64,000 bases of DNA from Eubacteriales bacterium (GTDB taxonomy: Bacteria > Bacillota > Clostridia > Oscillospirales > CAG-272): the NCBI GenBank assembly GCA_045540515.1, contig JAZQHJ010000173.1:6347-70346 (forward strand), given 5' to 3'. This document shows, piece after piece, positions 11,863 to 59,328 of this stretch (positions are counted from its first letter, which is position 1; every line of letters begins with the position of its first letter). The position numbers and the translations under genes are program-made. Under the pieces are notes generated by a model. It had not been told where the DNA came from, searched no databases, and saw only the letters and a program-made list of their open reading frames with translations.

Positions 11863-11864
11863 CA

Positions 11865-13946: not shown

Positions 13947-13982
13947 TTCCTTGCAAATCCTTTATCAACGAAAGGAATAAAA

Positions 13983-41008: not shown

Positions 41009-41022
41009 AAAGGAGATACAAA

Positions 41023-42207: not shown

Positions 42208-42226
42208 AGTATTAGGAGAATAAAAA

Positions 42227-43648: not shown

Positions 43649-43688
43649 AATAAAAAATTAAAATTCATTATAATGGAGGAAAAAGAAA

Positions 43689-44468
43689 ATGGATGAAAAC
43701 ATGGAATTATTCGGAGAAGAGGGCTTTGACGACATTGGCGAAATTCCAGTAGGAGCGCAAAAGGAAATTCTTGTAGTGCCAATTATCGACGCATCAGGAA
43801 GTATGAGTGACTATGGCAACATTACAAAGGTTAATGAGGCAATGGCAACTGTACCAGCACAGCTCAAGCAAATTGAACAAAAAGAGCATGTTAAGGTTGT
43901 ACTAGCACCACTTGCGTTCAGCAACGAGGCAAAATGGCTCGGCTTACAAGGTGGCTCACCTGTTTACGTGGATCAATTCGTATGGAGAGACCTTTCTGCA
44001 TCTGGCGGAACAAACCTTGGAGATGCTTACACAAAGCTATGGGAAAAGCTCACAACAAAGGAGCAAGGCGGTTGGATGGACGGCAGAAAGGGCTTAAAGC
44101 CAATTCTACTTCTCATTTCTGACGGAGCTCCAAATCCAGGCTGGGAAAGACCTTTTGAAAAATTAAAGGAAAGAGGCTGGTTCAGCACATCAATCAGATA
44201 TGCAATCAAGGTTGAAAGTGCAAGAGAGGACGTTCTTTTGGCATTTACAGAAAACAAAGAGGCTATCTATGATATTTCAACCCTAAGAGACAAGCTTTCT
44301 TCTTTAATTGTAAAAATTATTATGAAGGTAACCGAGGCTGTAAGTAAGGGTGGCGGAGTTAAGGCAAACATCGGTGGTTCAAATCAAAGCATGGACCAAC
44401 AAGCAAACAAAGAGATAATTGCTGGCGCTAACGAAGAAATTAAGGCAGACGACCCAACCCTATTCTAA
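43689..44468 (+). CDS. TerY-like von Willebrand factor A domain protein (intact MIDAS)
   Basis: MIDAS DxSxS in PIIDASGSMS, Thr in SGGTNLG and Asp in LLLISDGAPN. Confidence 0.8.
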   Translation: MDENMELFGEEGFDDIGEIPVGAQKEILVVPIIDASGSMSDYGNITKVNEAMATVPAQLKQIEQKEHVKVVLAPLAFSNEAKWLGLQGGSPVYVDQFVWRDLSASGGTNLGDAYTKLWEKLTTKEQGGWMDGRKGLKPILLLISDGAPNPGWERPFEKLKERGWFSTSIRYAIKVESAREDVLLAFTENKEAIYDISTLRDKLSSLIVKIIMKVTEAVSKGGGVKANIGGSNQSMDQQANKEIIAGANEEIKADDPTLF

Positions 44469-44490
44469 TTAAAATAACGCAAATCAGACC

Positions 44491-44516
44491 TGTCCGCCGT
44501 CGTAGGACGGTGGACA
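44491..44516 (+). other. strong intra-operon RNA hairpin (11-bp stem, GTAG loop), no T-run
   Basis: TGTCCGCCGTC gtag GACGGTGGACA (one G-U pair), located 23 nt after the vWA stop codon. Confidence 0.5.
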
Positions 44517-44635
44517 AGCTCTGGTTACAAAAAACAAATGACCTTAAAAGTCCAAGCACGGCTTGGCAAAAAAGAAATAAATTTGAAAACAGCTTGGCAT
44601 ATGCCAATAACATAAAATTAGGAAAAGGAGCTAAA

Positions 44636-45358
44636 ATGGCAAAATTACAAGAATCCTCAAAACAAAAACAAATGGAACTGCTAGTAGTTCCAATTATAAA
44701 TGTATCAAAGAGTATGAAGGGCGAAAAAATTTCTTCAGTCAATGAGGCTATGAGCAACTTTGCTTCCCAGCTTCTTGCGATTGAAGAAAACGAGATAAAT
44801 GTGTTGATTGCTCCACTTGTTTTTTCAAGCAAGGCACAATGGATAAAATTAAATGATAATAACCCAGTAAGACCAGCAGATTTTATCTGGGAGGACATAA
44901 GCGCAGATGATGAAGAGGCAAATCTTGGTAGCGCTTACGAATTACTATATGAAAAGCTTCAAACAAAGGAAAACGGCGGTTGGATGCAATATAAAGATAA
45001 GGGGCTATGTCCAATTATTTTGCTTATTTCTGATAATTCTGTTAGCCATAGTGCAAATTGGCAGAAGTCATATGAACACATAAGCGGGCTTTTTTGGTTT
45101 CAATGGGCATTAAGGTTTGTAATAAAGATTGAATCAAATGACGCTCTTGAAAGCTTTGTTAAATGTAGAGAAAATATTTACGATGTTCATCATTTAAGGC
45201 ATGATGTTGGATGCTTTGTTCATCCAATTGTGTGTAGCTATGATAGGTATTGCGACGACGAACCACATTATGAAAATGAGCCCGTTACTCCTCAAAGCAA
45301 CGAGGATGACACAAAGCCAATAGAGCCAATAGATTTCGAAGACCTTTTTCTAGAATAA
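44636..45358 (+). CDS. vWA domain protein with degenerate MIDAS
   Basis: ATG at 44636 follows AAAGGAG. The MIDAS positions read NVSKS (D to N), DDEEANLG (T to A) and LLISDNS (DG to DN). The C-terminus is acidic. Confidence 0.65.
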   Translation: MAKLQESSKQKQMELLVVPIINVSKSMKGEKISSVNEAMSNFASQLLAIEENEINVLIAPLVFSSKAQWIKLNDNNPVRPADFIWEDISADDEEANLGSAYELLYEKLQTKENGGWMQYKDKGLCPIILLISDNSVSHSANWQKSYEHISGLFWFQWALRFVIKIESNDALESFVKCRENIYDVHHLRHDVGCFVHPIVCSYDRYCDDEPHYENEPVTPQSNEDDTKPIEPIDFEDLFLE

Positions 45359-45403
45359 TTTTTAGTAGCATTAAATTAAATACATATACAGCAAGGAGAC
45401 AAA

Positions 45404-46108
45404 ATGGCAAAAAAATACCCATTTGATGAGCTAGAAGAAGGAGTTCCAATTCCACAGTGCTTCGTAGCTCCAATTATTGACACATCTGGAAGCATGTATA
45501 ACATTTTACCTCTAATAAACGAAGCTATAAGTGAGCTTTTACCAATATTAAAGGAAATAGAATTAGACGAGTGCATTGATATAAGCTTTATGCCAATAGG
45601 CTTTGCAAATCAAGCAAGGTGGTTAAGAGCACCAAATGATGATGGCTGTGAATGGGATAAGGAAAAGCTAGTAGCAAGCGGAGGAAGCAATTTAGAGAGT
45701 GCATTTAATTTGCTTTACGATAAGCTAAAAAGTGAAAAAGAAGGCGGATGGTTAAGGAGAGAAGCAACACGACCGGTTCTTGTTCTTATAACAGACGGAT
45801 ATCCAGAGCAAGGCTGGGAGAGGGCGTTAGAGGAGCTAAACAAGGTAAATGCCTTCAAGAACGCTATAAGATATGCAATTGAGCTAAACGATGTAGATGA
45901 AAGGGTTCTTTTAAAATTTGCAGACGAGGATGCAGTTATTCGTGTTTGGAAGAACACAGATATTAAGGAGCTTTTTATGGAATTGATTGTTTTGGCAATA
46001 CAAGAAGCAAGGTGTACTGATAGCCTTTTATTGAATGACGGCATATCCAAGGAAAAAATCATTAGAAGAATAAATGAAGCAATCTTCTATAAAGAGGAAG
46101 AGCTTTAA
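45404..46108 (+). CDS. TerY-like vWA domain protein (intact MIDAS)
   Basis: PIIDTSGSMYN, SGGSNLESAF and VLITDGYPEQGWE. Confidence 0.8.
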   Translation: MAKKYPFDELEEGVPIPQCFVAPIIDTSGSMYNILPLINEAISELLPILKEIELDECIDISFMPIGFANQARWLRAPNDDGCEWDKEKLVASGGSNLESAFNLLYDKLKSEKEGGWLRREATRPVLVLITDGYPEQGWERALEELNKVNAFKNAIRYAIELNDVDERVLLKFADEDAVIRVWKNTDIKELFMELIVLAIQEARCTDSLLLNDGISKEKIIRRINEAIFYKEEEL

Positions 46109-46140
46109 ACAGAAAGAAAATATATAAGGAGAAAATAAAT

Positions 46141-47244
46141 ATGGAAAAGGGATTTTTTATATCAAGAAGAGGTGGCTCTCACGCAAGCTCAGGAACACCA
46201 ATGCAGGATTATTCATCAGCGGTAAGATGCGATGATTATAGCATTGCAATAGTTTGTGATGGACACGGATCAGCCAAGCATTTCAGAAGTCATATCGGCT
46301 CACGTCTTGCAACCGAGGTAATACAGGAAAATCTAATAGATTTTGTAAATGCGTATCCAAATTATGAAAGCGCGAGTAAGGATTTTGGCAAAAAGGCTGA
46401 AAGATTAAAGCTAAATATTTTAAATACATGGATTTCCAAAATTGATGAGGATATAGACAAAACTCCTTTTACCGAGGAAGAGCTTAAAAAGGGTGTAGGC
46501 AACAAGGGTGTTGATTATTTAAGCTACTATACCAAGGTTACACCATATGGAACAACTGCTCTTGCGGTGCTTTTGACCAAGGATTATTATGTAGCGCTTA
46601 TGCTAGGTGATGGACTTATTGCAAAAATGGCTCCTTATACTGAAGCGACCGAGGAAACCTTTGAGGGAAAGCGTGAAATTAAAAGAGGCGACCCGATTGA
46701 CTCTATGTGCAACGAGGATGCGGCATATAAAATGCACGTAAAGTGCGTTCCTGTATCAGAGGACGAAAAGGGACTTGCATTTGCAATTTCCTCTGACGGA
46801 TATTGTGAAGCAGGCGTTTTTCCAACCTGGAAAATGCTAAATTGGCCAAAGAAATACATAGTAAGATATGCAGTTAGAGGTATTGACGAGGCAATAGAAG
46901 CAATTACACCTCAATTTGACGAGATTTCAGCAAAAAGCGAAGCAGAGGACGACATTTCAATGGCGATTGCTTGCAATGAACCAGAGTTATATATAGAATG
47001 GGCAAAGGCGGAGAGAGAAAAGGCTCTTAAAGCAAAGGCAGAGGCAGAGAGAAAAGCCGAGGAAGAGAAAAAGGCAGAGGCTGAAAAGGAAGCAACGGCG
47101 AAAGCAGAGACAGAAGCAAAGGAAGAAGAAAAGGCTCAAAGCACAGAGCAAGAAAGCGCCCAAGCACCTGATGAAAAGCCAGAGCAGGAAAATAAAGAAA
47201 CCGAGCAGACCCCTGAAAAGGAAGAGGATGCTCCAAAGGAATAA
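46141..47244 (+). CDS. PP2C-family Ser/Thr phosphatase with E/K/A-rich low-complexity tail
   Basis: MQDY...AIVCDGHGSAKH, LMLGDGLI and AISSDGYCE blocks. The last ~90 aa are KAEAERKAEEEKKAEAEKE... Confidence 0.75.
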   Translation: MEKGFFISRRGGSHASSGTPMQDYSSAVRCDDYSIAIVCDGHGSAKHFRSHIGSRLATEVIQENLIDFVNAYPNYESASKDFGKKAERLKLNILNTWISKIDEDIDKTPFTEEELKKGVGNKGVDYLSYYTKVTPYGTTALAVLLTKDYYVALMLGDGLIAKMAPYTEATEETFEGKREIKRGDPIDSMCNEDAAYKMHVKCVPVSEDEKGLAFAISSDGYCEAGVFPTWKMLNWPKKYIVRYAVRGIDEAIEAITPQFDEISAKSEAEDDISMAIACNEPELYIEWAKAEREKALKAKAEAERKAEEEKKAEAEKEATAKAETEAKEEEKAQSTEQESAQAPDEKPEQENKETEQTPEKEEDAPKE

Positions 47245-47279
47245 TAATGGAGAAATAAGCCAAGAGCTTAATTAGAAAT

Positions 47280-47801
47280 ATGGAGCATTTATTCATTTTA
47301 GTTGACACCTCGGGAAGCGTTGTGCTTGAAGGGATTCAAAAGATTGGACAAATTAACGATTTTTTAAGAGATGTGATAATTGCAACAATAGACCATCTTA
47401 AATCAATTCATGTTATTTTGTATTCTGATTTGCCAAGGGTTTATTTTAGAAAATCCGACGGAAGGGGATTCGGAGAAATCAAGGACTATGAATTTACAGG
47501 ACGCTCTAATCTTGGAAAGGCATATGCATTAACTAAAAAAATAATGGATGAGCAATCAGTTGATTGCTCAAATTCCATTATTGCCATAATATCGGACGGA
47601 GAGGCAACCGATAATTACAAAAAGGAGCTTATGCTCCTTGACCCAGACCAGAAATCAAAGAGGATTGCAGTGGGCTTGGGTGCAGAGCAAGATACACTTG
47701 AAGACCATATAAACGAAACAGGTGTAATTATATCCGATATAACAAGCGATAATGCAAAACGAGAGTTTATAGGCAACACAATCAATACAATTACTATATA
47801 A
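47280..47801 (+). CDS. short vWA domain protein (intact MIDAS)
   Basis: FILVDTSGSV, GRSNLGKAY and AIISDGEATDN. The protein is 173 aa. Confidence 0.7.
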   Translation: MEHLFILVDTSGSVVLEGIQKIGQINDFLRDVIIATIDHLKSIHVILYSDLPRVYFRKSDGRGFGEIKDYEFTGRSNLGKAYALTKKIMDEQSVDCSNSIIAIISDGEATDNYKKELMLLDPDQKSKRIAVGLGAEQDTLEDHINETGVIISDITSDNAKREFIGNTINTITI

Positions 47802-47813
47802 AAGAGGATAAAA

Positions 47814-50800
47814 ATGAACATATCAGCAAAAGATCTGGCAAAATTTTTACAGAATTCCGTTTCCTTTGATTTTTCAAAGGAAACAATTTTGTCGTACAAT
47901 AAAATACGCAGAAGATATGATGATTTTTATGCCTTGGAGAATAAAAGAGCATTTATTGCCTTGCTTAATGATATAATCGGTGATGACAATCAGTTGGTTG
48001 ATATTTTTGCTGACCTTCAAGCAGCCGATAGAGGATTCAGATTTTTTGCAAACGAGGAAAATAGGCAGTCAAGAAGCGTATTAAACGCAATCGGCTATTT
48101 TTTAAGCGACAGACGATTTGATTATCACAAAAACGATATTGCAAAGGTATATTTTGCAATAAACACATGGCTCTGCTTCTACGGTGCAAATGAGGTTTCA
48201 CTTCACTGGACCGTTTGTCCTCTATGCACAAAAAAGATTGTATTTGGACAATGCAGTAATTTAAGCTGTAAGAAGAAGGAAGAGGAATTTATTCCTATAA
48301 TGCTTGAGCTTCAAGCAATTTTAAAGGCAGAAAACGAAGGCAAGGAAATGCCTTTGCCAAAATATTTTAAAACGATTGAGCCAAATGCCGAGTTTGGCTT
48401 TTACAAAACAAGCATTGAGCAAAAAAGGAACGAAAGAAAGGCGCAACAGGAGCAACAGGAGCAGAAGGACAAAAAGAAAGCAATTGAGCTTGCAGAAAAG
48501 GAGCTTGTAAAGATTTCTGAAAAGGCAAGGCTCGAATCCGAAAAGGAAGTTCCTGATTTTGATTCAATTTTTAAGGAGCTTACAACAAATCCTATAATCC
48601 TTGAAGCACTAAAATACAAGGACAAGAGCTTTGAGAAAAAGCTCAATGCCTTAAAGGAGCAAATTCAAGGCTATAAGGACAGCGTTTATTCAAAAAAGGA
48701 GCAAGAAAGACAAAAGGCAATAGCTATAAATGACTTTAAAGCTTTTTCTCTCCTAAAAGCAAAGCTGGATGCAGAGCTTGCAAACAAGGGAATTGAGCTC
48801 CCTCTTGAAGAGGTTAGAGAGCTTTTGGCAAAGGCAGATGAGGCATTTAATAAGGTTGACACTGCAAATACAAGATACCCAAGCCTGTATTCAAAGTCCG
48901 AGAAGGAAGTCATTAAGGACTACAAGGAAAGCACCAAGCCAAAAACCGAAAAGAGAATCGAGGAAAGAGTCGAGGAGGAACGCCTTGACGACGCCAAGGA
49001 CAAGCTTGTAATAGCTATTGGTGAAATTGAAAAGGAATACGAAAGATGCAAGAATCTCAAGGACGGCGCAAGTGAGCTTTGGGAAAAATTTATAAACGAG
49101 ATTGAGAAAAACGAGGAATATATTGACTGTCGTGAGGTTCCAGCGTGGGATGCTGTTTATTTGGAAATAACAGGACCAATAAAGCAGAAGCTTTCAAATT
49201 TGCTTACAGAGGAAACCGAACAAAAGAAAAAGCACTTTATGTCAGCAGTTGTTCCTTTAAAGGATAAGGTAAGCAAGGCAAAGCCAGCGGACAAGTCTGC
49301 AAATGCTTTATCTAACGAGCTTAAAGCAATAAAAGCTAACAAATACTATTCGAGCATAAAGCAAAGTGCTGAATACAAGAAGGAAATTGCTTGGCTTGAA
49401 AACAAAATAAACGACCTACAAGCAAAGGAAAGGGCATATTTCAAGAGAAGAAAGACAGCCGTTTCAGCAACATCTATAACTATTTTGAGCCTTGCTATAA
49501 TTTTGTACTCACTGCTTGCGTACATTATTCCAATTTCAAGGGTTCAAATCAAATCAACAAAAGCCTCGACTAATAATTATTCAGTTGAAAGCTTAAAGGA
49601 CAACGAAACTGAATTTTTGATAATAGACGAGTATTTACCACATTTCTTTTTACAAAAAAGTAAAAGGGTTTCAAGCATTTCAAGCGAAGCCTTTAAGAAT
49701 AATGAATATCTTAAAAAATGCACACTTCCTGCTTCAATTGAAAGAATAGGAGAGGGAGCATTTGATGGATGCACAAGCCTTGGTCTAGTAGTGCTACAAT
49801 CCAATGAGCCACCAAAAATTGAGAGTAGCTCGTTTGATAATTGTAACACAATTTTTGTCGTGCCAGAGGAAAGCTACTCTGCGTATATGCAAAGCGAGGA
49901 CTGGGCAAGACACAGAACAAAAATTTTCCCAAATTACAACAACCAAGACGGCTTTGGCACTGTTATGTTCGATTCAAATGGTGGAAGCAGTGTTGAAACA
50001 ATGAAAACAATTCAGCTAAATGCACAGGTAAGCACACTTCCAACCCCAACCAAGGAGGGCTACGCCTTTGCAGGCTGGTATTACATTGATGCAGAGGGCA
50101 AGCAAGCCGTAATGAGCAATGATGATGCAGTGTTTTCAACAAGCACAAAGCTTGTTGCCAAGTGGAAGCAGGGCGTATATTCAGTAAGCTTTGAGCAAAA
50201 CGATGGCACAGGAAAAGCAACAAGCGCTGACTATACATATGGTGAAAGATGGGAGTCATTCCCACAGCCTACAAGGGATGGATATACCTTTGAGGGCTGG
50301 TATATAAATGACAAGAAGCTATTAGAGACATCACTTGTTAGCATTACAGGAAATGCAACTGCAATAGCAAAATGGACTGCAAACGAATACAGTGTTAGCT
50401 TTGATTATGCAGGCGGAGAGTCTTCAACAGAGCAGACAACGGTAATTTTTGATGGAAAATACGGAGAGCTTCCACAATCAACAAAAGTGGGCTATACCTT
50501 TGGTGGTTGGAGCTATGAAAATGAAAGCATTAGTTCAAGCACAGTAGTTAAAGCACCAAAAAATCATACGCTTGTTGCAAAATGGATTCCAAACACCTAC
50601 ACAATCCGTTATGAGGCTATGGGTGGAATAATAAGCGAAGAGACTATAATCTGCGAGTACGATAAGCCAGTGACACTCAGCGCTCCGCAAAGAGCTGGTT
50701 ATACCTTTGTTAACTGGGAGTGCGACGGAGTAACCTATCTTGCAGGAGACGAGGTTCTCAATCTTGCAAGCACAAGTGCTGAGTTTGTTTTTGAGGCTAA

Positions 50801-53800
50801 TTGGAAAGCAAACACCTATAAAATTAAATACGATTCAGACGGAGGAAATGTAAACAAGCAGGAGCAGGATTGCATATATGATGTAGATGTCGTGCTTGAA
50901 ACACCGACAAGAAATGGCTATAAGTTCCTTTACTGGTCATATGGCTCTTACAAGCTGTATGGTGGAGAGGTTGCAAGCAATCTTTCATCCACACAAGGGG
51001 ATGAAATACAGTTAAAGGCAATATGGAGAGCAATTACATATACAATTGAATATGATGCAAATGGTGGAGAGCAGGTAAACAATAGCGTTCTATGTACATA
51101 TGATGTTCCTACAATACTAGAAACTCCAACAAGAGATGGCTACACCTTCAAGCATTGGACACACCAAGGGACAATTTATGAGGCTGGACAAAGCATTGTA
51201 AATCTTACAAGCGACGATGAAGGAAAAATCAAGCTTGTTGCCGTTTGGGTCGCTAAGGAAAATGTTATCACCTTTAATCCAAATGGTGGTACAGGAGAAA
51301 TGACCGACGTTAATATACTTTCCGATGGTAGTGTACAATTACCACTTAATGCATATGCAAAAAATGGCTATACCTTTATAGGTTGGAGCACACAGAAAAA
51401 TGGTAGCGTTGAATATAAAGACGGAGATACCTTTGAGGCAGGAACAGAGTCAAGCTATACTCTTTATGCCGTTTGGGAGGCAAATGAAAACAAGCTAATT
51501 CTTTATGCAAATAACGGTACACAGGAGAGCATTGAGCTAACTGTTAAAACAGCACAGACAATAACAATACCTAAAAACACCTTCACACGTGCAGGATATA
51601 CCTTTACAGGCTGGGAGCTGGCAGATGGAACAGGTGCATCCTACAAGGATGAGGCAGAGATAGTAATGCCTGCAAGTGAGGAATCATACCTTGTTGCAAT
51701 ATGGACGGCAAATGATAACACCATTATTTTTGATGCCAATGGAGGAAGTGGAGAAGCAGTTGAACAGCATATCAAGACTGATGAAAATAAGCCACTTATT
51801 GCTTGTAGCTATACAAGAAAGGGTTATAAATTTATAGGCTGGTCAAGGACTAAGGACGGAGGAGTAAACTATTTAGATGGCGCAGGCTATCAAATGGATG
51901 CAAGCGCAACAACAACTCTTTATGCGGTTTGGGAAATCGTAAATTACGATATTACCTATGAGCTAAGCGGAGCAGAAAATTCAAGCTCAAATCCAACAAG
52001 CTATAACATAAGCTCAGGCACAATTGTACTTGAAGCTCCAAGCAAGGCTGGTTATACCTTTGATGGATGGTTCCTTGATGAATTAGCAACTCAACCAATT
52101 ACTCAAATTGATTCAACAAGGCTTGAAGCAATTACTCTTTATGCTAAATTCACAGTAAATACAAATAAGCTTCACTTTAATCCTATGGGAGCAAGTGGAG
52201 AAATGGCAACTCTTGATGTTCAAACGGGCAAGATAGTTACCTTGCCAAGCTGTACATTTACAAAGCCGGGTTACTATTTTGTAGGTTGGAGCACAGAAAA
52301 TGGCGGAGACGTGTCGTATTTTGCTTCCTCATCGTACGAAATGGGAACAGAGGCTGAATATACTCTTTATGCCGTTTGGGATAAGGCTGTATATACCATA
52401 AGCTATGAAACAAACGGTGGAACAAATTCAACCTTAAATCCATCCGAGTACCACATAGAAAGTGCAGAAATTATTTTGAAATCACCTACAAAGGCAGGCT
52501 ATACCTTTGGAGGCTGGTATTCAGAATCAACAATGACAACTGATAAGGTGGAAAAAATATCAGCAGGAAGCACGGGCAATATAACCCTATATGCAAGGTG
52601 GATTGCAAATACAAATACACTCCACTTTAACGCAAACGGCGGAACGGGAGCAATGAATGACGTTAAGCTTCAAACTGGCGAGGAAATGAAAGCATTGCCA
52701 AGCGCTACCTTTGAAAAGGTCGGCTACAACTTTGCAGGTTGGGCACTAACACCTAATGGAAGCTCAATTTATGCAAACGGAGCAAGCTTTGAAATGGGCA
52801 CCGATGCTGAAATGACACTCTATGCAGTATGGACAGACTTTTCATATACTATCTCATATAATTTGGACGGAGGAATAAACAATCAACAAAACCCAAGTGG
52901 CTATGGTGTGGAAACCAACACAATAACACTTGCATCTCCAACCAAGGCAGGCTACACCTTTATGGGATGGTATTCTGAGGATTCCCTTGAAAACAAGATA
53001 ACACAAATTCCAAAGGGAAGCACAGGAAATATTGTGCTTTATGCAAGCTGGGAAGCAAACGAAAATACAATAATATTCAATCCAAATGGCGCAACTGGCT
53101 CAATGAGTAGCATTAAGCTGAAAACAGGCGAGTCGATAAAGCTACCAAGAAATACCTTTAAGAAGGAGGGCCATACCTTTAAGGGCTGGGCAACCACTGC
53201 AAATGGAGCAGTTGCTTATGCTGATGGCTCTGCTTATGTAATGGGTACTGGCTCAACCTATACGCTATATGCAGTATGGCAGGCGAATTCATATGTTGTA
53301 ACATATGCAGACCATTCAAAGACAGTTATCTATGGTCAGTCATACGGAACGCTTTCAAAGCCAAGCACAGAGCCAACAGGATATAAGTTCTCACATTGGA
53401 CATACAATGGAGCAACAATAAGTGCTGGAACAACTGTAACAACTGCGTCAAGCCATACCCTAACACCAGTATGGGTAGCACGTACATATACAGTTTATTA
53501 CGGACCATATTCAAAGACAGTAACATACGATCAGCCATATGGAGAATTTAACACAGTATCAAAGACAGGATATACATTCAATAATTGGAGCTATAATGGA
53601 GCAACAATAACCTCAAATACAATTGTTAAAACGGCATCAGACCATACCTTAAAGGACAACTGGGTAGTAAACTATTACACGATTTCAATTTCTGAAAGCG
53701 GAGCATGGGCAACAGTTGAGGTTAATGGAGTTACATATTCCTCTGAAACTACAATTTCAGCTCCATACAATGCAAGCATAAAGGTTACATTTGGTGCAAA

Positions 53801-54608
53801 TAGCAATTATCAAAATCCTACATGCTCGTACAATGGAACTGCAATATCAAGTGGCTATACAACAACTATGCCAGCAGGCAACGTAAGCATAAGTGCAAGC
53901 GCAACAGAAATTCCATCAGGTGGTAGTTGCTTTGCAAGAGGAACACTGATTGCACTAGGAAATGGCAGAGTGGTTAAGGTCGAGGACCTAAATGTTGGAG
54001 ATGAAATCTTATCATTTGACCACGCAACAGGAAAATTTGTAGCTCAAAGGGTTGGATTTATCTTTAAGGCATTTGAAAGTGTTGAAATAAACGAGCTATT
54101 CTTTGAAAATGGTAGCTCAATTACCTTAACTAACTATGGCGGACACGGTATGTATGATGCTACTCTTGGAGAATATGTACTAATAACACCAGAAAACGTA
54201 AATCAATTTATCGGGCACGAGTTTGCAGTAATGAATGGTGAAAAAATAGGTACAACAAGGCTTGAAGCATATGATTACAGAATTGCATATGTTGAGCGAT
54301 ATGACGTTGTAACCCACAACACCCTTAACTGCATAGCGAATGGATTTATTACATGCTCTGACGTGCTTGTAAGCATTTGCAATGTATTTGAATTTACAAG
54401 CAATTTTACGTATGACCTTGAAAAAATGGAAAACGATATTAACACCTACGGCTTATACACCTATGAGGAGTGGAGTGAATATCTAACCGAGGAGGAATTT
54501 AATTCCTTTGGAGGTGCATACTTCAAGGTAGCTGTTGGCAAGGGCTTAATTACAAGGGATGAAATATTACAGCTCCTTTGGTTCTTGCACAGCTGGAACA
54601 ACATTTAA
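47814..54608 (+). CDS. 2264-aa single-pass membrane protein: cytoplasmic Zn-ribbon + coiled coil, TM helix, BspA-type LRR, 17 Listeria/Bacteroides (Flg_new-type) repeats, beta-rich spacer, C-terminal Hint domain
   Basis: CPLCTKK...CSNLSC ribbon (48215-48269). K/E-rich coiled coil at about aa 170-540. TM helix AVSATSITILSLAIILYSLLAYIIPI (49458-49535). LRR IERIGEGAFDGCTSL. GY(T/K)FxGW occurs 17 times. CFARGTLIALGNG...THNTLNCIANGFITCS is the Hint domain. Confidence 0.8.
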   Translation: MNISAKDLAKFLQNSVSFDFSKETILSYNKIRRRYDDFYALENKRAFIALLNDIIGDDNQLVDIFADLQAADRGFRFFANEENRQSRSVLNAIGYFLSDRRFDYHKNDIAKVYFAINTWLCFYGANEVSLHWTVCPLCTKKIVFGQCSNLSCKKKEEEFIPIMLELQAILKAENEGKEMPLPKYFKTIEPNAEFGFYKTSIEQKRNERKAQQEQQEQKDKKKAIELAEKELVKISEKARLESEKEVPDFDSIFKELTTNPIILEALKYKDKSFEKKLNALKEQIQGYKDSVYSKKEQERQKAIAINDFKAFSLLKAKLDAELANKGIELPLEEVRELLAKADEAFNKVDTANTRYPSLYSKSEKEVIKDYKESTKPKTEKRIEERVEEERLDDAKDKLVIAIGEIEKEYERCKNLKDGASELWEKFINEIEKNEEYIDCREVPAWDAVYLEITGPIKQKLSNLLTEETEQKKKHFMSAVVPLKDKVSKAKPADKSANALSNELKAIKANKYYSSIKQSAEYKKEIAWLENKINDLQAKERAYFKRRKTAVSATSITILSLAIILYSLLAYIIPISRVQIKSTKASTNNYSVESLKDNETEFLIIDEYLPHFFLQKSKRVSSISSEAFKNNEYLKKCTLPASIERIGEGAFDGCTSLGLVVLQSNEPPKIESSSFDNCNTIFVVPEESYSAYMQSEDWARHRTKIFPNYNNQDGFGTVMFDSNGGSSVETMKTIQLNAQVSTLPTPTKEGYAFAGWYYIDAEGKQAVMSNDDAVFSTSTKLVAKWKQGVYSVSFEQNDGTGKATSADYTYGERWESFPQPTRDGYTFEGWYINDKKLLETSLVSITGNATAIAKWTANEYSVSFDYAGGESSTEQTTVIFDGKYGELPQSTKVGYTFGGWSYENESISSSTVVKAPKNHTLVAKWIPNTYTIRYEAMGGIISEETIICEYDKPVTLSAPQRAGYTFVNWECDGVTYLAGDEVLNLASTSAEFVFEANWKANTYKIKYDSDGGNVNKQEQDCIYDVDVVLETPTRNGYKFLYWSYGSYKLYGGEVASNLSSTQGDEIQLKAIWRAITYTIEYDANGGEQVNNSVLCTYDVPTILETPTRDGYTFKHWTHQGTIYEAGQSIVNLTSDDEGKIKLVAVWVAKENVITFNPNGGTGEMTDVNILSDGSVQLPLNAYAKNGYTFIGWSTQKNGSVEYKDGDTFEAGTESSYTLYAVWEANENKLILYANNGTQESIELTVKTAQTITIPKNTFTRAGYTFTGWELADGTGASYKDEAEIVMPASEESYLVAIWTANDNTIIFDANGGSGEAVEQHIKTDENKPLIACSYTRKGYKFIGWSRTKDGGVNYLDGAGYQMDASATTTLYAVWEIVNYDITYELSGAENSSSNPTSYNISSGTIVLEAPSKAGYTFDGWFLDELATQPITQIDSTRLEAITLYAKFTVNTNKLHFNPMGASGEMATLDVQTGKIVTLPSCTFTKPGYYFVGWSTENGGDVSYFASSSYEMGTEAEYTLYAVWDKAVYTISYETNGGTNSTLNPSEYHIESAEIILKSPTKAGYTFGGWYSESTMTTDKVEKISAGSTGNITLYARWIANTNTLHFNANGGTGAMNDVKLQTGEEMKALPSATFEKVGYNFAGWALTPNGSSIYANGASFEMGTDAEMTLYAVWTDFSYTISYNLDGGINNQQNPSGYGVETNTITLASPTKAGYTFMGWYSEDSLENKITQIPKGSTGNIVLYASWEANENTIIFNPNGATGSMSSIKLKTGESIKLPRNTFKKEGHTFKGWATTANGAVAYADGSAYVMGTGSTYTLYAVWQANSYVVTYADHSKTVIYGQSYGTLSKPSTEPTGYKFSHWTYNGATISAGTTVTTASSHTLTPVWVARTYTVYYGPYSKTVTYDQPYGEFNTVSKTGYTFNNWSYNGATITSNTIVKTASDHTLKDNWVVNYYTISISESGAWATVEVNGVTYSSETTISAPYNASIKVTFGANSNYQNPTCSYNGTAISSGYTTTMPAGNVSISASATEIPSGGSCFARGTLIALGNGRVVKVEDLNVGDEILSFDHATGKFVAQRVGFIFKAFESVEINELFFENGSSITLTNYGGHGMYDATLGEYVLITPENVNQFIGHEFAVMNGEKIGTTRLEAYDYRIAYVERYDVVTHNTLNCIANGFITCSDVLVSICNVFEFTSNFTYDLEKMENDINTYGLYTYEEWSEYLTEEEFNSFGGAYFKVAVGKGLITRDEILQLLWFLHSWNNI
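49956..53666 (+). repeat. in-frame tandem protein-repeat array (17 units of ~63-75 aa, four subtypes)
   Basis: The repeats fall into four subtypes, which I label A-D. Reading along the gene, the order is D x6 (aa 715-1146), A x3 (1150-1375), alternating B-A x3 (1376-1822) and C x2 (1826-1951). Each unit carries a GY(T/K/N/Y)F.(G/N/H/Y)W core. Confidence 0.8.
53928..54356 (+). other. Hint (Hedgehog/intein-like, BIL-type) domain
   Basis: It starts at Cys2039 (CFARGTLI, the intein block A pattern) and contains VVTHNTLNCIANGF (block F-like). It ends ITCS instead of the canonical terminal HN. An 83-aa tail follows. Confidence 0.7.
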
Positions 54609-54615
54609 AAGAAAG

Positions 54616-54645
54616 GTAAGTGGCAGAATAAGCTCTGCCACTTAC
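54616..54645 (+). other. perfect 12-bp stem hairpin between the giant gene and the ATPase gene (possible attenuator/stabiliser)
   Basis: GTAAGTGGCAGA ataagc TCTGCCACTTAC, followed by TAAAATT, which is only a weak T-tract. Confidence 0.5.
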
Positions 54646-54667
54646 TAAAATTGCAAGAGGGGAAAAT

Positions 54668-57600
54668 ATGCTAATAAATGAATTTATTAAGGCAGGAGAG
54701 GTATGGGATGCGTATAAGCAATCATATCGTTCTCAAAAAGAAAGCTACAAAAAAAGCTACGAGACTCAAAAAGCGCAAAAGATAAACGAGCAAGGTACAC
54801 TTTATAAAAAGATTAATGACCTTAAATTAAAAATCAATCAAAATGAAGAAAGCCTTCGTGCGCTTGTTTCAGAAACCTTTGAAAGCGTTGCATTTGAAAG
54901 GATAAAAAGGTCAGTGAGCGCTTTTGGCATCACCTCAAGCAAAAGGGACAGAAGCATTGATATTGAAAACGTCAAGAGTGAGTTAAAAAGGGCACTGCTA
55001 GAAAAGAAGGCTTGCGAGGCAAGAGTCCCAAAAATTCAAGATGAAATAAACGAGCTTGACAAGGCATATCAAGAAAAAGATGCTAAGCTTGATAATGACT
55101 ATCAAAGCAAAAAGCAAGAAACAGAGAAAAAGGTTATTGCAAAATATGATGCCGAGACAAAAAGATGCGTTCGTAAATATAGCTCTAAAACAACAGTTCC
55201 AGAGCCACCAAGCCTACCACCTAAAAAGGTTATTCTTGGAACTCAAAGAGCGGTGGTTTCAACGCTTAACGATGTTTTACCAGGTCCAATATATATGCCA
55301 TATGAGGTGGATGTAAAGGACAATGGAAGCTTTGCAATAAACGTAAGCCAAAATGCACTAAATAGTAGAATCACAGAAAGCATAATGGTAGGAATGCTTC
55401 TTAAATACATAGATTCATTTCCTGCAAAAAAGCTTCATATAGGTGTATTTAGTCCAACACTTGCATCCTTTAACCATTTGAATGCTCTTTACAACGCAAT
55501 GAAGAGTGAGGGCTGTACAGTGCTTCCAGAGGGCATTAGCTCGGCAAATAGAATAGATGAGCTGTTTAATGCAATTGATGTAAAGGCAAAGGGAATAAGG
55601 GATGATAAAATTTTACGCTCGGGACTTAGCAACATTTTTGACTTATATGATGCAGGTCAGACAACCGAGACCTTTACTGTCGTTGTTTTACATAATGCTC
55701 TATCAAGCCTAAATGATGAGGAAATAAACAAGCTTTCCAGCTTCATAAAGGGCTATCACAGATGTGGAGTTAGATTTATAATAGTAGAGGATTTTTCATC
55801 TATAAATACAAGAAGCTCAATAAATTATGCAAGAGCACTTGATGAAATAAAGCAGAGCTGTACAAGAATTGATATAAATGAAAAAGGAATAGCAAGGGTT
55901 GATGGTATAGAAACCTCTATGATGTCCTTAATGCCTGATTTTGATGAAATTAAGGTTTATAACTACTGTATTGATTATCTTAAAAAGGAGAAAAAATCAG
56001 CATACGTCACCTACGAAAGCATTGGCTTTGGCAAGGAGACACCTGACGCTGATGAATATACAAGAATACTAATACCAGTTGCAACAACTGGCTCTGGGGC
56101 TTGGCATATGAAGTTTGCTTGCGAAATCAACGAATCAAAGCTGGCTCCGATTGCAAATCTTATACTTGGAGAGTCTGGCTCGGGAAAATCCTGCTTGATT
56201 GAATCAATGATATATAATGCTTCAATGAAATATTCTCCTGATGATTTAATTTTCCATTTTCTTGATTTTAAACAGAATTCAACAGCGGGCTTATATCTTA
56301 ATGAAACATACAAAATTCCCCATATAAAGGTGCTAACGGCAGATAGCAAGCCAGAAGAGGCAAGCTTTATTCTTGATAATATATTAGAAGAAAACATAAA
56401 AAGAATAAAGACATTTTCCGATCTTGGAGAAAAGTACAAAACAGCAATAAAAAATATAGCACAATATAATAAGTTTATTGTAACTAACGGCGTACAGATT
56501 TCAAAAATGCCACGACTTATTATAATAGTGGACGAGTGCCAATATCTTTTTGCATCTGACGCACTTGTAGATAAGCTGACTTCAATAGTAAGACTAGGAA
56601 GAAGCCAAGGTATTCACATAGTTCTAGCGACACAAACACTAAACTCAACCATGAGAAGCTGGGTATCTAAATTTGTTAATGGATTATATGTTTATTCATC
56701 TCCACAAGAGGATATAGAGGCAATTTTGGATAAGCAATATCATAAGCGTGTTAACACCGAGGCTCCTGTGGGATCGTTTCAATGCTTTGCTTCGGATAAT
56801 GGAGGAAGCTTGTGTACAAAGATAACCCCTGCCTTCTATGGAGATCCACCAGAGCCTATAAGCTATTCAAACGCAATAAGAAGCAAATGGAGTAGCTATC
56901 CATGCGACACTGTTGTAATAGGCGAAAAGAGAGATCTTTATATAAATAACGAGGATTATCAAAAAATCCTTGGCAAGCTTGATAATTATAAAATTGCCTT
57001 TGGAGAAAATTATCAAAACAGAGAGCCATTTTATTTTGAGTTGAAGCAAAAAATAGGACAAGGTGTTGATAAAATAGGTTCAGTTGTCCTTATTGGAGAC
57101 AATGATGTTATTGCATCAAGTCTTTGTACGTCTGTTTTGTTAAGTGCAAAAAGAAACAAAACAAAGGTATATGCAATAGATATGTCAAGGTCACAAACAC
57201 TTGCAACAATAAAAAGCAAATGCTTTGATTCTGATTCATCAATCTTTGTAGGAAAGGGCGCTGATTATAACTCTACCATTGCAAAGGTTTATATGGAATA
57301 TGAAGCAAGATGCGCTGAGTTCAACAATGACCCGTCTGCAAAATTTGAGCCCATTATTTTAATGATAAATTCTGCTGACCGTATAAATGATTATAATAAC
57401 AATACATTGTATGAAATTAAGGCCGAGCAAAAGGAGAAAAAATCCAGCGCTGATTCAAATAATCCGTGCATAGGCATTCCTGGATATGCTCCGCTTGATG
57501 ATTATATAAGTGATGAGGAAAGCGATACAAATAATGAGTATTCTGCAAAGATAAAGGTAAGGGACGCTCTTTACGAAATTCTTAAAAAAGGTGCAGATTA

Positions 57601-57871
57601 TGGAATAGTTGTGTGCCTGTGGGCAAACGACAATGAAGAAATTAAAGCAAAGCAAACGGGCTTTATCAAGCTAGCGTTTAACGCAATCCCTTCAAACATC
57701 TCATCATATTTTGATAATTCGTTCTATGAAAGAATGACTGATGGTATGAGTCAGACCATGGCATTTGTTAACCATTACGATGCTACTGTGGGAAGATTGA
57801 ACAAGCGTATCAGGGTATATCAATATGATTTGGATGACGAGGATTTAATTAAATTTATTAGAACATTATAA
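54668..57871 (+). CDS. FtsK/SpoIIIE-family ATPase, three P-loop-like modules (only the middle one intact), N-terminal coiled coil, no TM or FHA domain
   Basis: Walker A GESGSGKS (aa 501-508), Walker B IIIVDECQ (aa ~618-625) and LGRSQGIHIVLATQ. The flanking modules are degenerate (FTVVVLHN...GVRFIIVED and SVVLIGDND...PIILMINSADR). Confidence 0.8.
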   Translation: MLINEFIKAGEVWDAYKQSYRSQKESYKKSYETQKAQKINEQGTLYKKINDLKLKINQNEESLRALVSETFESVAFERIKRSVSAFGITSSKRDRSIDIENVKSELKRALLEKKACEARVPKIQDEINELDKAYQEKDAKLDNDYQSKKQETEKKVIAKYDAETKRCVRKYSSKTTVPEPPSLPPKKVILGTQRAVVSTLNDVLPGPIYMPYEVDVKDNGSFAINVSQNALNSRITESIMVGMLLKYIDSFPAKKLHIGVFSPTLASFNHLNALYNAMKSEGCTVLPEGISSANRIDELFNAIDVKAKGIRDDKILRSGLSNIFDLYDAGQTTETFTVVVLHNALSSLNDEEINKLSSFIKGYHRCGVRFIIVEDFSSINTRSSINYARALDEIKQSCTRIDINEKGIARVDGIETSMMSLMPDFDEIKVYNYCIDYLKKEKKSAYVTYESIGFGKETPDADEYTRILIPVATTGSGAWHMKFACEINESKLAPIANLILGESGSGKSCLIESMIYNASMKYSPDDLIFHFLDFKQNSTAGLYLNETYKIPHIKVLTADSKPEEASFILDNILEENIKRIKTFSDLGEKYKTAIKNIAQYNKFIVTNGVQISKMPRLIIIVDECQYLFASDALVDKLTSIVRLGRSQGIHIVLATQTLNSTMRSWVSKFVNGLYVYSSPQEDIEAILDKQYHKRVNTEAPVGSFQCFASDNGGSLCTKITPAFYGDPPEPISYSNAIRSKWSSYPCDTVVIGEKRDLYINNEDYQKILGKLDNYKIAFGENYQNREPFYFELKQKIGQGVDKIGSVVLIGDNDVIASSLCTSVLLSAKRNKTKVYAIDMSRSQTLATIKSKCFDSDSSIFVGKGADYNSTIAKVYMEYEARCAEFNNDPSAKFEPIILMINSADRINDYNNNTLYEIKAEQKEKKSSADSNNPCIGIPGYAPLDDYISDEESDTNNEYSAKIKVRDALYEILKKGADYGIVVCLWANDNEEIKAKQTGFIKLAFNAIPSNISSYFDNSFYERMTDGMSQTMAFVNHYDATVGRLNKRIRVYQYDLDDEDLIKFIRTL

Positions 57872-57883
57872 AGGAGAACTTTT

Positions 57884-58171
57884 ATGAAGCTTCCAGAAAG
57901 AATAGAAGAAATAAATATGGATCCCGAAGCTGTAAGGGAGCAAATCAAAAAAATATCTGGAGAATTTGAAAAAATAGGCGAAATTAGCGAAAGAACGAAA
58001 AACAATCTAGTTGCGCTTGAGGGTAACTTTAAAAGTGGAAACTATATAAGAGCAGCAGAGGCAATAGGATCTGTAAGAGCTAAAATGACAAAAGCAGAGG
58101 TGGAATTTGATGAGCTTATTCGCTCTTGCGACTCCCTTGTAAAGAAAGTTGAAGAAATAACAAAAAGATAA
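57884..58171 (+). CDS. WXG100-like small helical protein (FKSGN variant), paralog of 58454-58741
   Basis: 95 aa and predicted all-helical. The central turn LEGNFKSGNYIRAAEAIGS sits where WXG100 proteins carry W-x-G. The gene lies immediately downstream of the FtsK-like ATPase. Confidence 0.5.
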   Translation: MKLPERIEEINMDPEAVREQIKKISGEFEKIGEISERTKNNLVALEGNFKSGNYIRAAEAIGSVRAKMTKAEVEFDELIRSCDSLVKKVEEITKR

Positions 58172-58182
58172 GGAGGCTAATT

Positions 58183-58440
58183 ATGGCACAGGGACAAATC
58201 ATAGAAACAAAGGGCATATTGCTTCAAGTTATAAAGGATTTAACAAAATATAAGGATGAAGTTGATAAAATAATGAAATCAATTCTTCAAAAGACCAATG
58301 AGCTAAATAACGATTGGAAGGATGCTCAATACACCAAGTTTCAGGCTTATATTGAGGATATTAAAAAAGGGATCGATAATGATTTGAAAGAGCTTGATGA
58401 ATGTGTTGCAGTATTAAAGAAAAGAGCGGAGCTCTATTAA
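58183..58440 (+). CDS. WXG100-like small helical protein (WKD variant)
   Basis: 85 aa. The central NNDWKDAQYTKFQAYIEDI resembles the W-x-G-x-A-x-x-F core with Gly replaced by Asp. Confidence 0.5.
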   Translation: MAQGQIIETKGILLQVIKDLTKYKDEVDKIMKSILQKTNELNNDWKDAQYTKFQAYIEDIKKGIDNDLKELDECVAVLKKRAELY

Positions 58441-58453
58441 TTAAGGACTAAAA

Positions 58454-58741
58454 ATGGGAAATATGGATGCATATGTAGATACCAACGCATTGAGAGATGG
58501 TGGTTCAAGTCTTGTGCAAAAAGCAGAAGGAATGCTTGAAATAACAAATCAACTCAAAAATAATCTTAACGCAATTTCTAATTATTTTAAAAGTGGAAAT
58601 CAAGAGCGTGCAGCAGAGGCAGTTGGAAATTCAGCCGTCGTTGTAAAAGACGTAGCTGATAAGCTGGAAATGCTTAACAAAAAGATGAATGAGCTTGCAT
58701 GCTGTATTGACGAATACGAGGAATGCACCTATGGCAAGTAA
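58454..58741 (+). CDS. WXG100-like small helical protein (FKSGN variant)
   Basis: 95 aa. The central ISNYFKSGNQERAAEAVGNS is paralogous to 57884-58171. The tail reads CCIDEYEECTYGK. Confidence 0.5.
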   Translation: MGNMDAYVDTNALRDGGSSLVQKAEGMLEITNQLKNNLNAISNYFKSGNQERAAEAVGNSAVVVKDVADKLEMLNKKMNELACCIDEYEECTYGK

Positions 58742-58759
58742 TAATAAGAGGTGAATCTT

Positions 58760-59320
58760 ATGGATATACAAAACCAAAATTTTATAAGCTTTATAAACCT
58801 AGCAGAGCAGAAATTTGAGGCAAAGTATAAGGAATATATTGAAAAGAAAAGAAACGACGAAGCAGAGGCAAACCGTAAGCTAGGCGAAATATCCAATTTG
58901 CTAAATCAGCTATCAAATCACAAAAGCATGATAAAAAATCCTATCCTTGCCCAAAGATTTCTTGATATTTTGAATAGAATTAGCCAAACAAATATCAGCG
59001 GAACCCCAAGCTATGCAAAGCTTGTATATTATTTAAATCGCTTAAATGATATTAAGCATGATGAATTTGCTTTAAAGAACAATCCTAGCTATTGCAATAC
59101 TGTTTTGACAAAAATAGCACAGCAATATATACTCATATACAGAAAGCTTGAAAGCGACAAAAAATCAATTGAAGTGCAATTTAAGGCTGAGTCTGATAGG
59201 CTTTTTAATGAATACAAGAATGCTATGCAAGAAAACGCCTATGCTGTTGTTAAAAGAGCAAGACAATATGCAGGAGTCGAGGCAGATGCATTAATAAAGC
59301 AAATTGAAGATAGCATATGA
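58760..59320 (+). CDS. hypothetical helical protein (186 aa)
   Basis: ATG at 58760 follows AGAGGTG. The protein is K/E/N-rich and helical, with no recognised family. Confidence 0.4.
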   Translation: MDIQNQNFISFINLAEQKFEAKYKEYIEKKRNDEAEANRKLGEISNLLNQLSNHKSMIKNPILAQRFLDILNRISQTNISGTPSYAKLVYYLNRLNDIKHDEFALKNNPSYCNTVLTKIAQQYILIYRKLESDKKSIEVQFKAESDRLFNEYKNAMQENAYAVVKRARQYAGVEADALIKQIEDSI

Positions 59321-59328
59321 GGTGAAAA

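Follow-up and report, generated by a model that had tools for sequence, protein, structure and literature searches.

The window analysed here, a stretch of 64,000 nucleotides from contig JAZQHJ010000173.1 of a Eubacteriales bacterium, carries a giant open reading frame (ORF) whose product of 2264 residues ends in a Hint domain and an 83-residue helical tail. Judging from the conservation of this combination, Hint domain and tail most likely make up a single functional unit of 226 residues, an obligate and widespread two-part module. An earlier note on this DNA had proposed that a Hint domain led by Cys2039 and followed by such a tail sits at the outer end of an extracellular stalk. The parts of the gene and of its product are listed below.

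47814..54608, + strand: giant ORF of 2264 residues, carrier of the Hint plus tail module; its stop codon is at 54606-54608
47814..49457, + strand: predicted cytoplasmic N-terminal region (residues 1-548), with a long charged, helical, coiled-coil-like stretch
48216-48269, + strand: Zn-ribbon-like Cys-rich motif CPLC...CSNLSC (residues 135-152), within the N-terminal region
49458..49544, + strand: single transmembrane helix (residues 549-577), with a hydropathy maximum of 2.3 at residue 554
49545..53927, + strand: predicted extracellular stalk (residues 578-2038), made up of LRR_5, about 17 Flg_new/Flg_new_2 beta-repeats and then the linker ATEIPSGGS
53928..54356, + strand: Hint domain (residues 2039-2181, 143 residues, CFARGTLIALGNG...NCIANGFITC), from AF2, Foldseek and the family profile
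53928..53930, + strand: Cys2039, predicted nucleophile of an N-S acyl shift at Ser2038-Cys2039
54144..54146, + strand: His2111, the block-B His
54156..54158, + strand: Asp2115, the acidic residue after block B (HGxxD)
54216..54218, + strand: His2135, in the family-specific motif IGHxF
54342..54362, + strand: block G equivalent (GFITC, then SD) that closes the Hint domain, at the position of His-Asn plus nucleophile in inteins
54357..54605, + strand: helical tail (residues 2182-2264, 83 residues), acidic (14 D/E vs 4 K/R) and 19% aromatic
54447..54464, + strand: tail motif YGLYTY (residues 2212-2217)
54525..54554, + strand: tail motif KVAVGKGLIT (residues 2238-2247)

The Hint fold is supported by structure prediction and by sequence profiles. 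The AF2 model of the last 242 residues is confident (predicted local distance difference test score, pLDDT, 88.8; predicted template modelling score, pTM, 0.85). Searched with Foldseek against the PDB, it matches mini-inteins, the bacterial intein-like (BIL) domain BIL2 of T. thermophila BUBL, a C. thermocellum BIL domain and Hedgehog 1at0, with E-values of about 1e-8 and target template modelling scores of 0.76-0.83 (0.80 for Hedgehog) over some 150 columns that cover the beta part only. The family profile finds among the PDB sequences a whole-domain match to Tetrahymena BUBL1 BIL2 (6y75/6tmm, E = 6.6e-8), followed by a protein with an intein C-terminal domain, Hedgehog and inteins. The Pfam and NCBIfam matches are all sub-threshold and confined to the first half of the Hint domain: the top-scoring Pfam Hint model, PF01079, reaches 24.7 bits for a gathering cut-off of 29.7 (profile positions 10-82 of 213), Hint_2 (PF13403) reaches 22.8 bits for a cut-off of 28.4 (positions 2-34 of 147), and intein_Nterm is matched at E = 0.004. 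PF01079 is matched by 16/22 relatives at E<=1 (best E = 1.5e-6). With PT-HINT, the window protein has no match at E<=1, and 3/22 relatives match weakly. The C-terminal 242 residues have 34 clear homologues with E-values down to 2e-65, which excludes a chance resemblance, and their alignment shows blocks A, B and F/G. Based on the predicted fold and on the residues of blocks A and B, the module can be assigned to the Hint superfamily. The hidden Markov model searches and the structure prediction that the earlier note had proposed thus bear out its Hint domain, along with the size of about 143 residues and the lack of a homing endonuclease, for which the gap between blocks B and F is too short. 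Of its motif reading, blocks A and F are present, but they are not the only ones, as block B (H2111) is there too.

The catalytic residues were followed across an alignment of 233 non-identical modules, drawn from protein searches and 82 genomic loci. The leading residue is Cys in all 230 modules aligned at this position, the block A Thr/Ser is kept in 229/230 (T2044 in the window copy), and the block-B His, which hhalign aligns to Hedgehog His329, is found in 231/233 modules, with D (214/233) or N (14/233) at the position of Asp2115. The motif IGHxF is similarly well kept (G2134 in 225/233, H2135 in 216/233 and F2137 in 228/233). The residue at -1 of Cys1 is small (S in 83, G in 48 and T in 23 of 210 carriers) and is preceded only by a short S/G linker, with no wall-spanning segment. 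At the other end of the domain, the last strand has the family consensus [ML]L[ST]x[PT], which reads FITC, followed by SD, in the window copy; HN or xN[CST] occurs there in just 3/233 modules. Since the terminal Asn is missing, the domain is predicted to be unable to splice or to cut C-terminally, while being able to form an N-terminal thioester. The retention of the nucleophile across sequences that are about 35-50% identical argues that this chemistry is in use. The lack of a terminal His-Asn and the attribution to a Hedgehog or BIL type rather than to a splicing type, both put forward in the earlier note, therefore hold for the whole family, and the canonical HN plus nucleophile of a mini-intein is not there in the other 230 modules. 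A hidden block-G Asn was looked for at the conserved N2190 (NxFE motif) and rejected: this residue lies after a predicted helix with no preceding His, and the next residue is Val in the window copy and I, Y or V in most members. At 70% probability, hhalign aligns Hedgehog Asp303, the general base that serves the incoming nucleophile, with F2084, in a column that holds D/N/E in 145/233 modules and whose neighbouring column holds His in 119/233; the window copy reads Phe2084-Lys2085 there, and it has Thr2170 where most members have the block-F His.

The tail is the better-conserved half of the module and exceeds the Hint domain in this respect, with a mean column identity of 53% vs 26% for the whole alignment. 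Modelled alone, it folds confidently into a compact bundle of 5-6 short helices (pLDDT 90.3). The longer motif D-I-x-x-Y-G-L-Y-T-Y (2208-2217) is near-invariant among the 233 modules: the G and L of YGLYTY are found in all of them, Y2212 and Y2217 in 231 each and T2216 in 225. In the second motif, K2238 is kept in 229, K2243 in 226, G2244 in 230 and T2247 in 212. The conserved polar and aromatic residues (D2208, Y2212, T2216, Y2217, K2238, K2243 and T2247) form a pattern that would suit an element that binds a ligand or a partner, with a single target conserved throughout. A single search with a tail-only profile against 1.84 billion representative proteins yielded 2,202 clusters at E<=1e-3 (1,852 at E<=1e-10), which make up one family. 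Among 179 inspected members (the best 150 of the 2,202 matches plus homologues found earlier), a Hint domain lies directly upstream of the tail in each of the 146 whose length allows a judgement, and the tail ends at most 16 residues from the C-terminus in 176/179. The tail has no relatives in Pfam, in the PDB sequences or in Foldseek searches of PDB and BFVD, and no description of a Hint domain combined with a conserved tail was found in the literature. The module appears to be an undescribed and distinct Hint subfamily, defined by its obligate tail.

An EF-hand identity of the tail was considered and dropped. The matches were marginal (aequorin, Foldseek E = 9.3; centrin profile, E = 0.61), and DIxxYGLYTYEE does not fit an EF-hand loop, because D2208 falls within a predicted helix and the residues at positions 3 and 5 are wrong. 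The model predicts that the tail packs on the Hint domain. Mutual-information couplings over the 233 modules link the first tail segment (166-175) with Hint positions 46-48 and 142-151 only, and phylogeny confounds this covariation too strongly for it to show where the tail lies with respect to the active site. A few members continue past the tail: P0164, P0280 and P0290 have 220-411 further residues with a beta-domain (...VYVAVY...G.L...V) that is also N-terminal in some carriers, and L043 (3215-10948) and P0171 have a low-complexity acidic/Ser-rich extension of 47-67 residues. In P0020 the tail is joined to a PmbA/TldD C-terminal domain, most likely through a chimeric metagenome assembly. 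A second, internal module in L053 proved to be a spurious weak domain match.

Besides a weak Hint match, Pfam recognises in the giant protein 17 Flg_new repeats, Flg_new_2 and LRR_5. Hydropathy gives no second transmembrane segment, and since KRRK precedes the transmembrane helix, an orientation with the N-terminus inside and the C-terminus outside is predicted; the signal looks like a Sec-type signal anchor and not like an LXG/WXG leader of a type VII secretion system (T7SS). The extracellular location given in the earlier note stands in that sense, but the ~1690 residues that it had assigned to the stalk are those of the whole extracellular part (578-2264), and the stalk ahead of Cys2039 measures about 1,460 residues. 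A domain related to the last beta-domain of the stalk also precedes the Hint domain in 78/210 other carriers. For the region of residues 1-548, a search of 5.8 billion proteins found only 5 homologues. Two of these, P0198 and P0199, consist of this domain and a transmembrane helix with almost no extracellular part, and thus have neither stalk nor module. Since they stop shortly past the transmembrane helix, stalk and tip are probably an addition to the family of the N-terminal domain.

A scan with one genome per species returned 253 loci, almost all in gut or rumen Clostridia and Bacilli metagenome-assembled genomes. The Clostridia include Oscillospiraceae, Christensenellaceae and Faecousia, and Pumilibacter muris is a cultured carrier; no relative of the module was found in 2.9 million viral contigs. 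Among 89 carriers, the module is C-terminal in proteins of about 500 to >3,500 residues. According to hydropathy, on which all the signal-peptide calls are based, an N-terminal hydrophobic export signal is present in 58/66 complete carriers, some of them TasA/SipW-like, pilin-like or lipoprotein-like, and many carriers have apparently cleavable signal peptides. The passengers are varied: the 40 carriers that were scanned contain Flg_new, LRR_5, Big_2 and much unannotated beta-rich sequence, and no enzyme, toxin, SLH, CWB, LysM or LPXTG anchor. The passenger of L010 has 171 homologues, and 105 of the best 120 finish in a Hint domain and tail. Dockerin_1 was flagged in 9/105; in each of the seven that were scanned, it is N-terminal (residues ~35-93) and above the gathering score. 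A type I dockerin, a beta-rich passenger and a C-terminal module are combined in P0215, P0238, P0239, P0241, P0260, P0264 and P0273, and the passenger of P0238 contains FctA isopeptide domains. Such dockerin carriers appear to be cellulosome-type proteins that are docked N-terminally and have a self-processing free end. Other carriers have pilin-like N_methyl leaders (e.g. L058 and L078), and L061 and L070 have cytoplasmic N-terminal regions followed by transmembrane segments. Since these anchors (transmembrane helix, dockerin, pilin-like leader) are N-terminal, the attachment is N-terminal too and the module occupies the free, cell-distal end.

No consistently adjacent gene family, including any immunity-like downstream gene, was found across the 89 carriers. 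The only recurring neighbours are pilin-like and signal-peptidase-like, at no more than 17 of about 80 loci, the pilin-like ones being the commonest (17 loci). The vWA, PP2C, kinase and WXG genes of the window show no conservation next to other carriers. One genome or locus can hold several paralogues that share the tail. The constancy of the tail and the lack of a conserved downstream partner agree with the earlier reader, who had recognised neither a toxin domain nor an immunity gene.

Some carriers have other features of their own. A signal-anchor motif, G-[AFS]-S-[ST]-W-[LI]-I, recurs just after the hydrophobic core in carriers and neighbours (examples are L016 1308, L018 2715, L036 1506, L047 162, L060 6017, L062 6005 and L063 11091); it differs from the TasA/SipW-type ...AWFTD leaders of 8 other carriers, and could represent a sorting signal that has gone unrecognised. 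L080 (6314-10726) encodes a 1470-residue carrier with an N-terminal Zn-ribbon and TIR-like domain (YDIFISF), a transmembrane region at ~970-1070 and an extracellular Hint domain and tail, which ties a cytoplasmic immune-type effector domain to the module. The sole Pfam TIR_2 match among the 40 scanned carriers is attributed to L080 by the YDIFISF motif only, and phmmer with a neighbouring TIR protein gave no match. In L070 (920-10726), a 1208-residue FtsK/SpoIIIE ATPase, four ORFs of 84-105 residues and two unannotated ORFs precede a carrier of 580 residues with a cytoplasmic N-terminus, three transmembrane segments and the module, a T7SS-like arrangement. L061, from Pumilibacter muris CLA-AA-M08, encodes a 731-residue protein similar to the L070 carrier.

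In the window, the giant gene is part of a co-directional cluster of about 19 kb (40142-59600, + strand) with short gaps, which includes two unannotated ORFs and the following genes.

42227-43648, + strand: Ser/Thr kinase, upstream of the giant gene
43689-44468, + strand: vWA, upstream
44510-45358, + strand: vWA, upstream
45404-46108, + strand: vWA, upstream
46141-47244, + strand: PP2C phosphatase, upstream
47280-47801, + strand: vWA, upstream (the upstream context as a whole spans 42227..47801)
54668..57871, + strand: FtsK/SpoIIIE-type ATPase of 1067 residues with one recognisable FtsK domain, the next gene downstream
57884..58741, + strand: three small helical WXG100-like ORFs (95, 85 and 95 residues), from the WXG100 scan (TIGR03930, E = 1.5e-5)

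The ATPase is EccC/EssC-like: its best solved relatives are the T7SS proteins EccC5 and YukB, and its matches to TIGR03924/03928 are far below the cut-offs. The middle small ORF (58183-58440) scores 28.2 bits with WXG100 for a gathering cut-off of 27.3. Sequence profiles, the only means used here, gave no Pfam match to a ubiquitin-like TsxB or an EspG-like TscG among the small ORFs scanned. The loci L083/L084 are syntenic with the window (kinase, vWA, PP2C, vWA, giant protein, ATPase and small ORFs) at an identity of ~48-49%; their giant gene is split into ORFs of 979 and 1304 residues, and the end with Hint domain and tail is retained. A TraG/VirD4-like coupling protein is found upstream in L083/L084. 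For the locus itself, these data suggest that the giant protein of a T7SS-like cluster would be made as a precursor whose tip can be removed. Towards its flanks, the window holds chromosomal genes that are ordinary for a saccharolytic anaerobe (GH95, GH31, GH92, PFL, DAP dehydrogenase). Window positions 8440-16307 hold three consecutive large ORFs of 1140, 693 and 774 residues, of which the 693-residue one has a C-terminal AAA+ ATPase and lid and the other two have no Pfam match; they may represent an uncharacterised ATPase-centred system.

The scenario that we favour for the module comprises three steps. Cys2039, aided by His2111, would attack the carbonyl of Ser2038, and the resulting N-S acyl shift would convert the last peptide bond of the stalk, Ser2038-Cys2039, into a thioester, as the near-absolute conservation of these residues suggests. 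The thioester could then be resolved by an external nucleophile only, and the 226-residue fragment made up of Hint domain and tail would therefore detach from the stalk. In the third and least certain step, the tail would act like the sterol/adduct-recognition region of Hedgehog, that is, it would bind a conserved ligand or partner and present its nucleophile, and the new C-terminus of the stalk (...EIPSGGS) would be esterified or amidated to an acceptor, not simply hydrolysed. The fibre tip would thereby be coupled covalently, in a single turnover. In the anaerobic habitat of gut and rumen, an extracellular thiol could presumably stay reduced. The first two steps, and hence an active cleavage or transfer Hint domain, are probable; that the transfer is directed to an acceptor and does not end in plain hydrolysis comes just short of an even bet, and we would give the full explanation a probability of roughly 45%. 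Acceptor-directed transfer is favoured because the tail, an obligate and terminal part, surpasses the catalytic domain in conservation, because its invariant polar and aromatic residues are typical of a binding site, because it is predicted to pack on the Hint domain and because in many members an acidic residue or His occupies the position that hhalign equates with Asp303.

Sequence comparison, predicted structure and genome comparison support, within their reach, the core of the earlier note's reading: a Hedgehog/BIL-type Hint domain that is predicted to cleave or transfer at its N-terminus but not to splice, located outside the cell at the end of a stalk, with no recognisable toxin or immunity gene. 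Several observations weigh against the three-step scenario. The tail has no similarity to the sterol-recognition region of Hedgehog or to any known binding domain, and its role is read from architecture and conservation. Neither a candidate acceptor nor a conserved neighbouring gene was found in the 89 carriers. The extra domains past the tail in P0164, P0280 and P0290 are odd for a discarded by-product, and the Phe2084-Lys2085 and Thr2170 of the window copy, at the Asp303-equivalent position and at that of the block-F His, weaken the case. A bolder form of the three-step reading, which we regard as doubtful, is that gut Firmicutes have their own version of Hedgehog autoprocessing. The conserved tail would be an adduct-recognition domain, and Hint domain and tail would together act as a 'harpoon', used once and without an enzyme, to ligate the distal tips of N-terminally anchored fibres covalently to a conserved acceptor; such fibres would include cellulosomal proteins that bear a dockerin, pilin-like proteins and the stalk of the T7SS-like apparatus. 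The acceptor could be a glycan, a protein amine or a lipid on food particles, mucus or other cells, or else a partner protein.

Several other scenarios may explain the same data. The thioester may simply be resolved by water, in which case the module would be a removable C-terminal cap or pro-domain that aids folding, export or assembly, a cleavable tether, or the source of a diffusible fragment of 25 kDa. This plain hydrolytic self-cleavage is the main alternative, plausible if tentative. The conservation of the catalytic residues applies to it equally, BIL domains without a C-terminal motif have been reported to cleave N-terminally (PMC7765530, PMC5874633), and the window copy has no Asp/His at the general-base position of Hedgehog. 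The domains that follow the tail in rare members suggest an independent life of the C-terminal fragment, and no acceptor was found. Yet a mere cap or leaving group should hardly be better conserved than any other part of the protein, with polar residues that are invariant in Clostridia and Bacilli alike. Phage tailspikes have auto-cleaved C-terminal chaperone domains. A comparable chaperone role here is at odds with the passengers, most of which are independently folding Ig-like or LRR repeats that should need no such help, and the lack of the module in the viral contigs leaves no link to the chaperones of phage tail fibres. Alternatively, the tail could recognise the cell's own envelope (a stem peptide of peptidoglycan, a teichoic acid or a lipid) and the Hint domain could transfer the C-terminus to it, in a sortase-like self-anchoring. 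The lack of SLH, CWB, LysM and LPXTG-type anchors in the 40 scanned carriers, the many apparently cleavable signal peptides and the restriction of the module to Firmicutes-type genomes would be congruent with this hypothesis, which is nevertheless unlikely: the recognisable anchors are N-terminal (the transmembrane helix of the window protein, the dockerin in 7/7 and the pilin-like leaders), the linker before Cys1 is short and spans no wall, and the window stalk of ~1,460 residues would have to fold back onto its own wall.

The remaining alternatives concern the fate of the fragment or the nature of the fold. By analogy with the autoproteolytic SEAL/GPS-type receptors (PMC10327162), the loss of Hint domain and tail through cleavage, force or a ligand could be sensed across the transmembrane helix by the cytoplasmic domain and by the kinase, PP2C, vWA and ATPase proteins. 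The window protein, L061, L070 and L080 do pair a cytoplasmic N-terminal domain with a transmembrane part and an extracellular module, and the orthologous locus L083 retains the module at 49% overall identity. Since most carriers have no cytoplasmic domain, the module is ~1,460 residues away from the membrane rather than juxtamembrane, and the homologues of the N-terminal domain P0198 and P0199 have neither stalk nor module, such a sensor is very unlikely. Slightly less credible still is the release of the tail as a toxin into a competitor. HINT peptidases are common just before the C-terminal toxins of Sec-, type V secretion system- and T7SS-linked proteins (PMC3482391), and the gene does sit in a T7SS-like cluster. 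This interpretation is contradicted by the constancy of the tail, a single family of 2,202 clusters with no conserved immunity-like gene downstream, by the occurrence of several same-tail paralogues in one genome or locus and by the near-absence of PT-HINT matches (none for the window protein, 3/22 weak ones in the family). Furthermore, the tail is an acidic helical domain of ~80 residues with no similarity to toxins, and the export signal looks like a Sec-type anchor rather than a T7SS LXG/WXG leader. As the tail is conserved, obligate and widespread, the analogy with Hedgehog, in which a Hint domain is followed by an adduct-recognition region, is much closer than that with polymorphic toxins. 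Finally, the Foldseek proximity of the model to mini-inteins equals that to BIL or Hedgehog domains, which would suit a true mini-intein. However, the His-Asn is absent from 230/233 modules, a family-specific tail follows in place of the continuation of a host protein, and the module is C-terminal in unrelated passengers instead of lying inside a conserved host gene; no endonuclease is present. A purely structural, inactive Hint fold is in turn hard to reconcile with the invariant Cys1 and the near-invariant block-B His, and we give next to no credit to either of these two options.

Hint domains are known to serve in splicing (inteins), in cholesterol transfer (Hedgehog) and in toxin release (PT-HINT and BIL). 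The module forms a fourth, large and unannotated group, a Hint domain locked to a conserved tail unlike toxins at the free end of the surface fibres of gut and rumen Firmicutes that are abundant but for the most part uncultured. If the tail does direct acyl transfer, bacteria would have a Hedgehog-style chemistry of protein adducts, Gram-positive cells a new route to covalent contacts, and protein engineering a compact, self-contained C-terminal ligation tag. If the 'harpoon' is real, covalent attachment that depends on neither sortase nor thioester domains (TED) would be used by >2,000 protein families. Should the module do no more than cleave itself, it would still define the step by which thousands of surface proteins of the microbiome mature, and even in that case the tail deserves its own family entry.

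Among known systems, the Hedgehog and Hog proteins (PF01079; 1at0), in which the Hint domain is followed by a sterol- or adduct-recognition region (SRR/ARR; PMC2362128, PMC7765530), share with the module a secreted passenger, a Cys-initiated Hint domain that lacks a splice junction and a terminal helical region of 60-85 residues. Cys1 and the block-B His align, and the residue that hhalign equates with Asp303 (70% probability) is acidic or His in many members. The differences are considerable. The hosts of the module are bacterial (Firmicutes) and its PF01079 score is below the gathering cut-off; the hhalign alignment covers only the first 93 residues of Hh-C, the tail gives no match to the SRR/ARR sequence motifs (K, L) and is a compact acidic helical domain whereas the SRR is membrane-active and sterol-binding, and the window copy has no equivalent of Asp303. 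BIL domains include the nearest solved sequence relative of the module, BIL2 (6y75/6tmm), and their carriers are likewise non-conserved, variable secreted proteins. B-type BIL domains keep the N-terminal motifs of inteins, miss the C-terminal motif and cleave N-terminally (PMC7765530). The module also lacks the C-terminal motif, but the Pfam model of this type, Hint_2, covers only its first 34 residues at a score below the cut-off; A-type BIL domains and BIL2 end in His-Asn, contrary to the module. No BIL type has been described with an obligate conserved C-terminal domain, and the phyletic range of the module, gut Clostridia and Bacilli, is different. PT-HINT (PF07591), which is predicted to cut at its own N-terminus (PMC3482391), is similarly an extracellular Hint domain that comes shortly before the C-terminus of large proteins associated with Sec or T7SS; there, a variable toxin comes with a cognate immunity gene, whereas here a single invariant tail unlike toxins comes with no immunity partner. 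TED adhesins of Gram-positive bacteria bear a reactive thioester at the cell-distal tip of a long repetitive fibre (PMC4450167). The likeness is one of function only, in that a thioester at the tip could capture a nucleophile of the target: in TED adhesins the thioester is preformed between the side chains of Cys and Gln, belongs to an unrelated fold and sits at the N-terminal tip of a protein with a C-terminal LPXTG anchor, while the module would make a backbone thioester at the C-terminal tip of an N-terminally anchored protein and lose the fragment. Lastly, the gene context resembles the T7SS variants with kinase, PPM phosphatase and vWA (T7SSc; Garrett et al. 2024, PMC11217815): it includes an EccC/EssC-like ATPase without FHA, WXG100-like proteins, a kinase, a PP2C/PPM phosphatase and vWA proteins, and the large envelope-spanning repeat protein is reminiscent of EsaA/TsdI. 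The window cluster differs by its short ATPase of 1067 residues and its four vWA genes, and by a stalk protein tipped with a Hint domain, which has been reported for none of the T7SS variants described.

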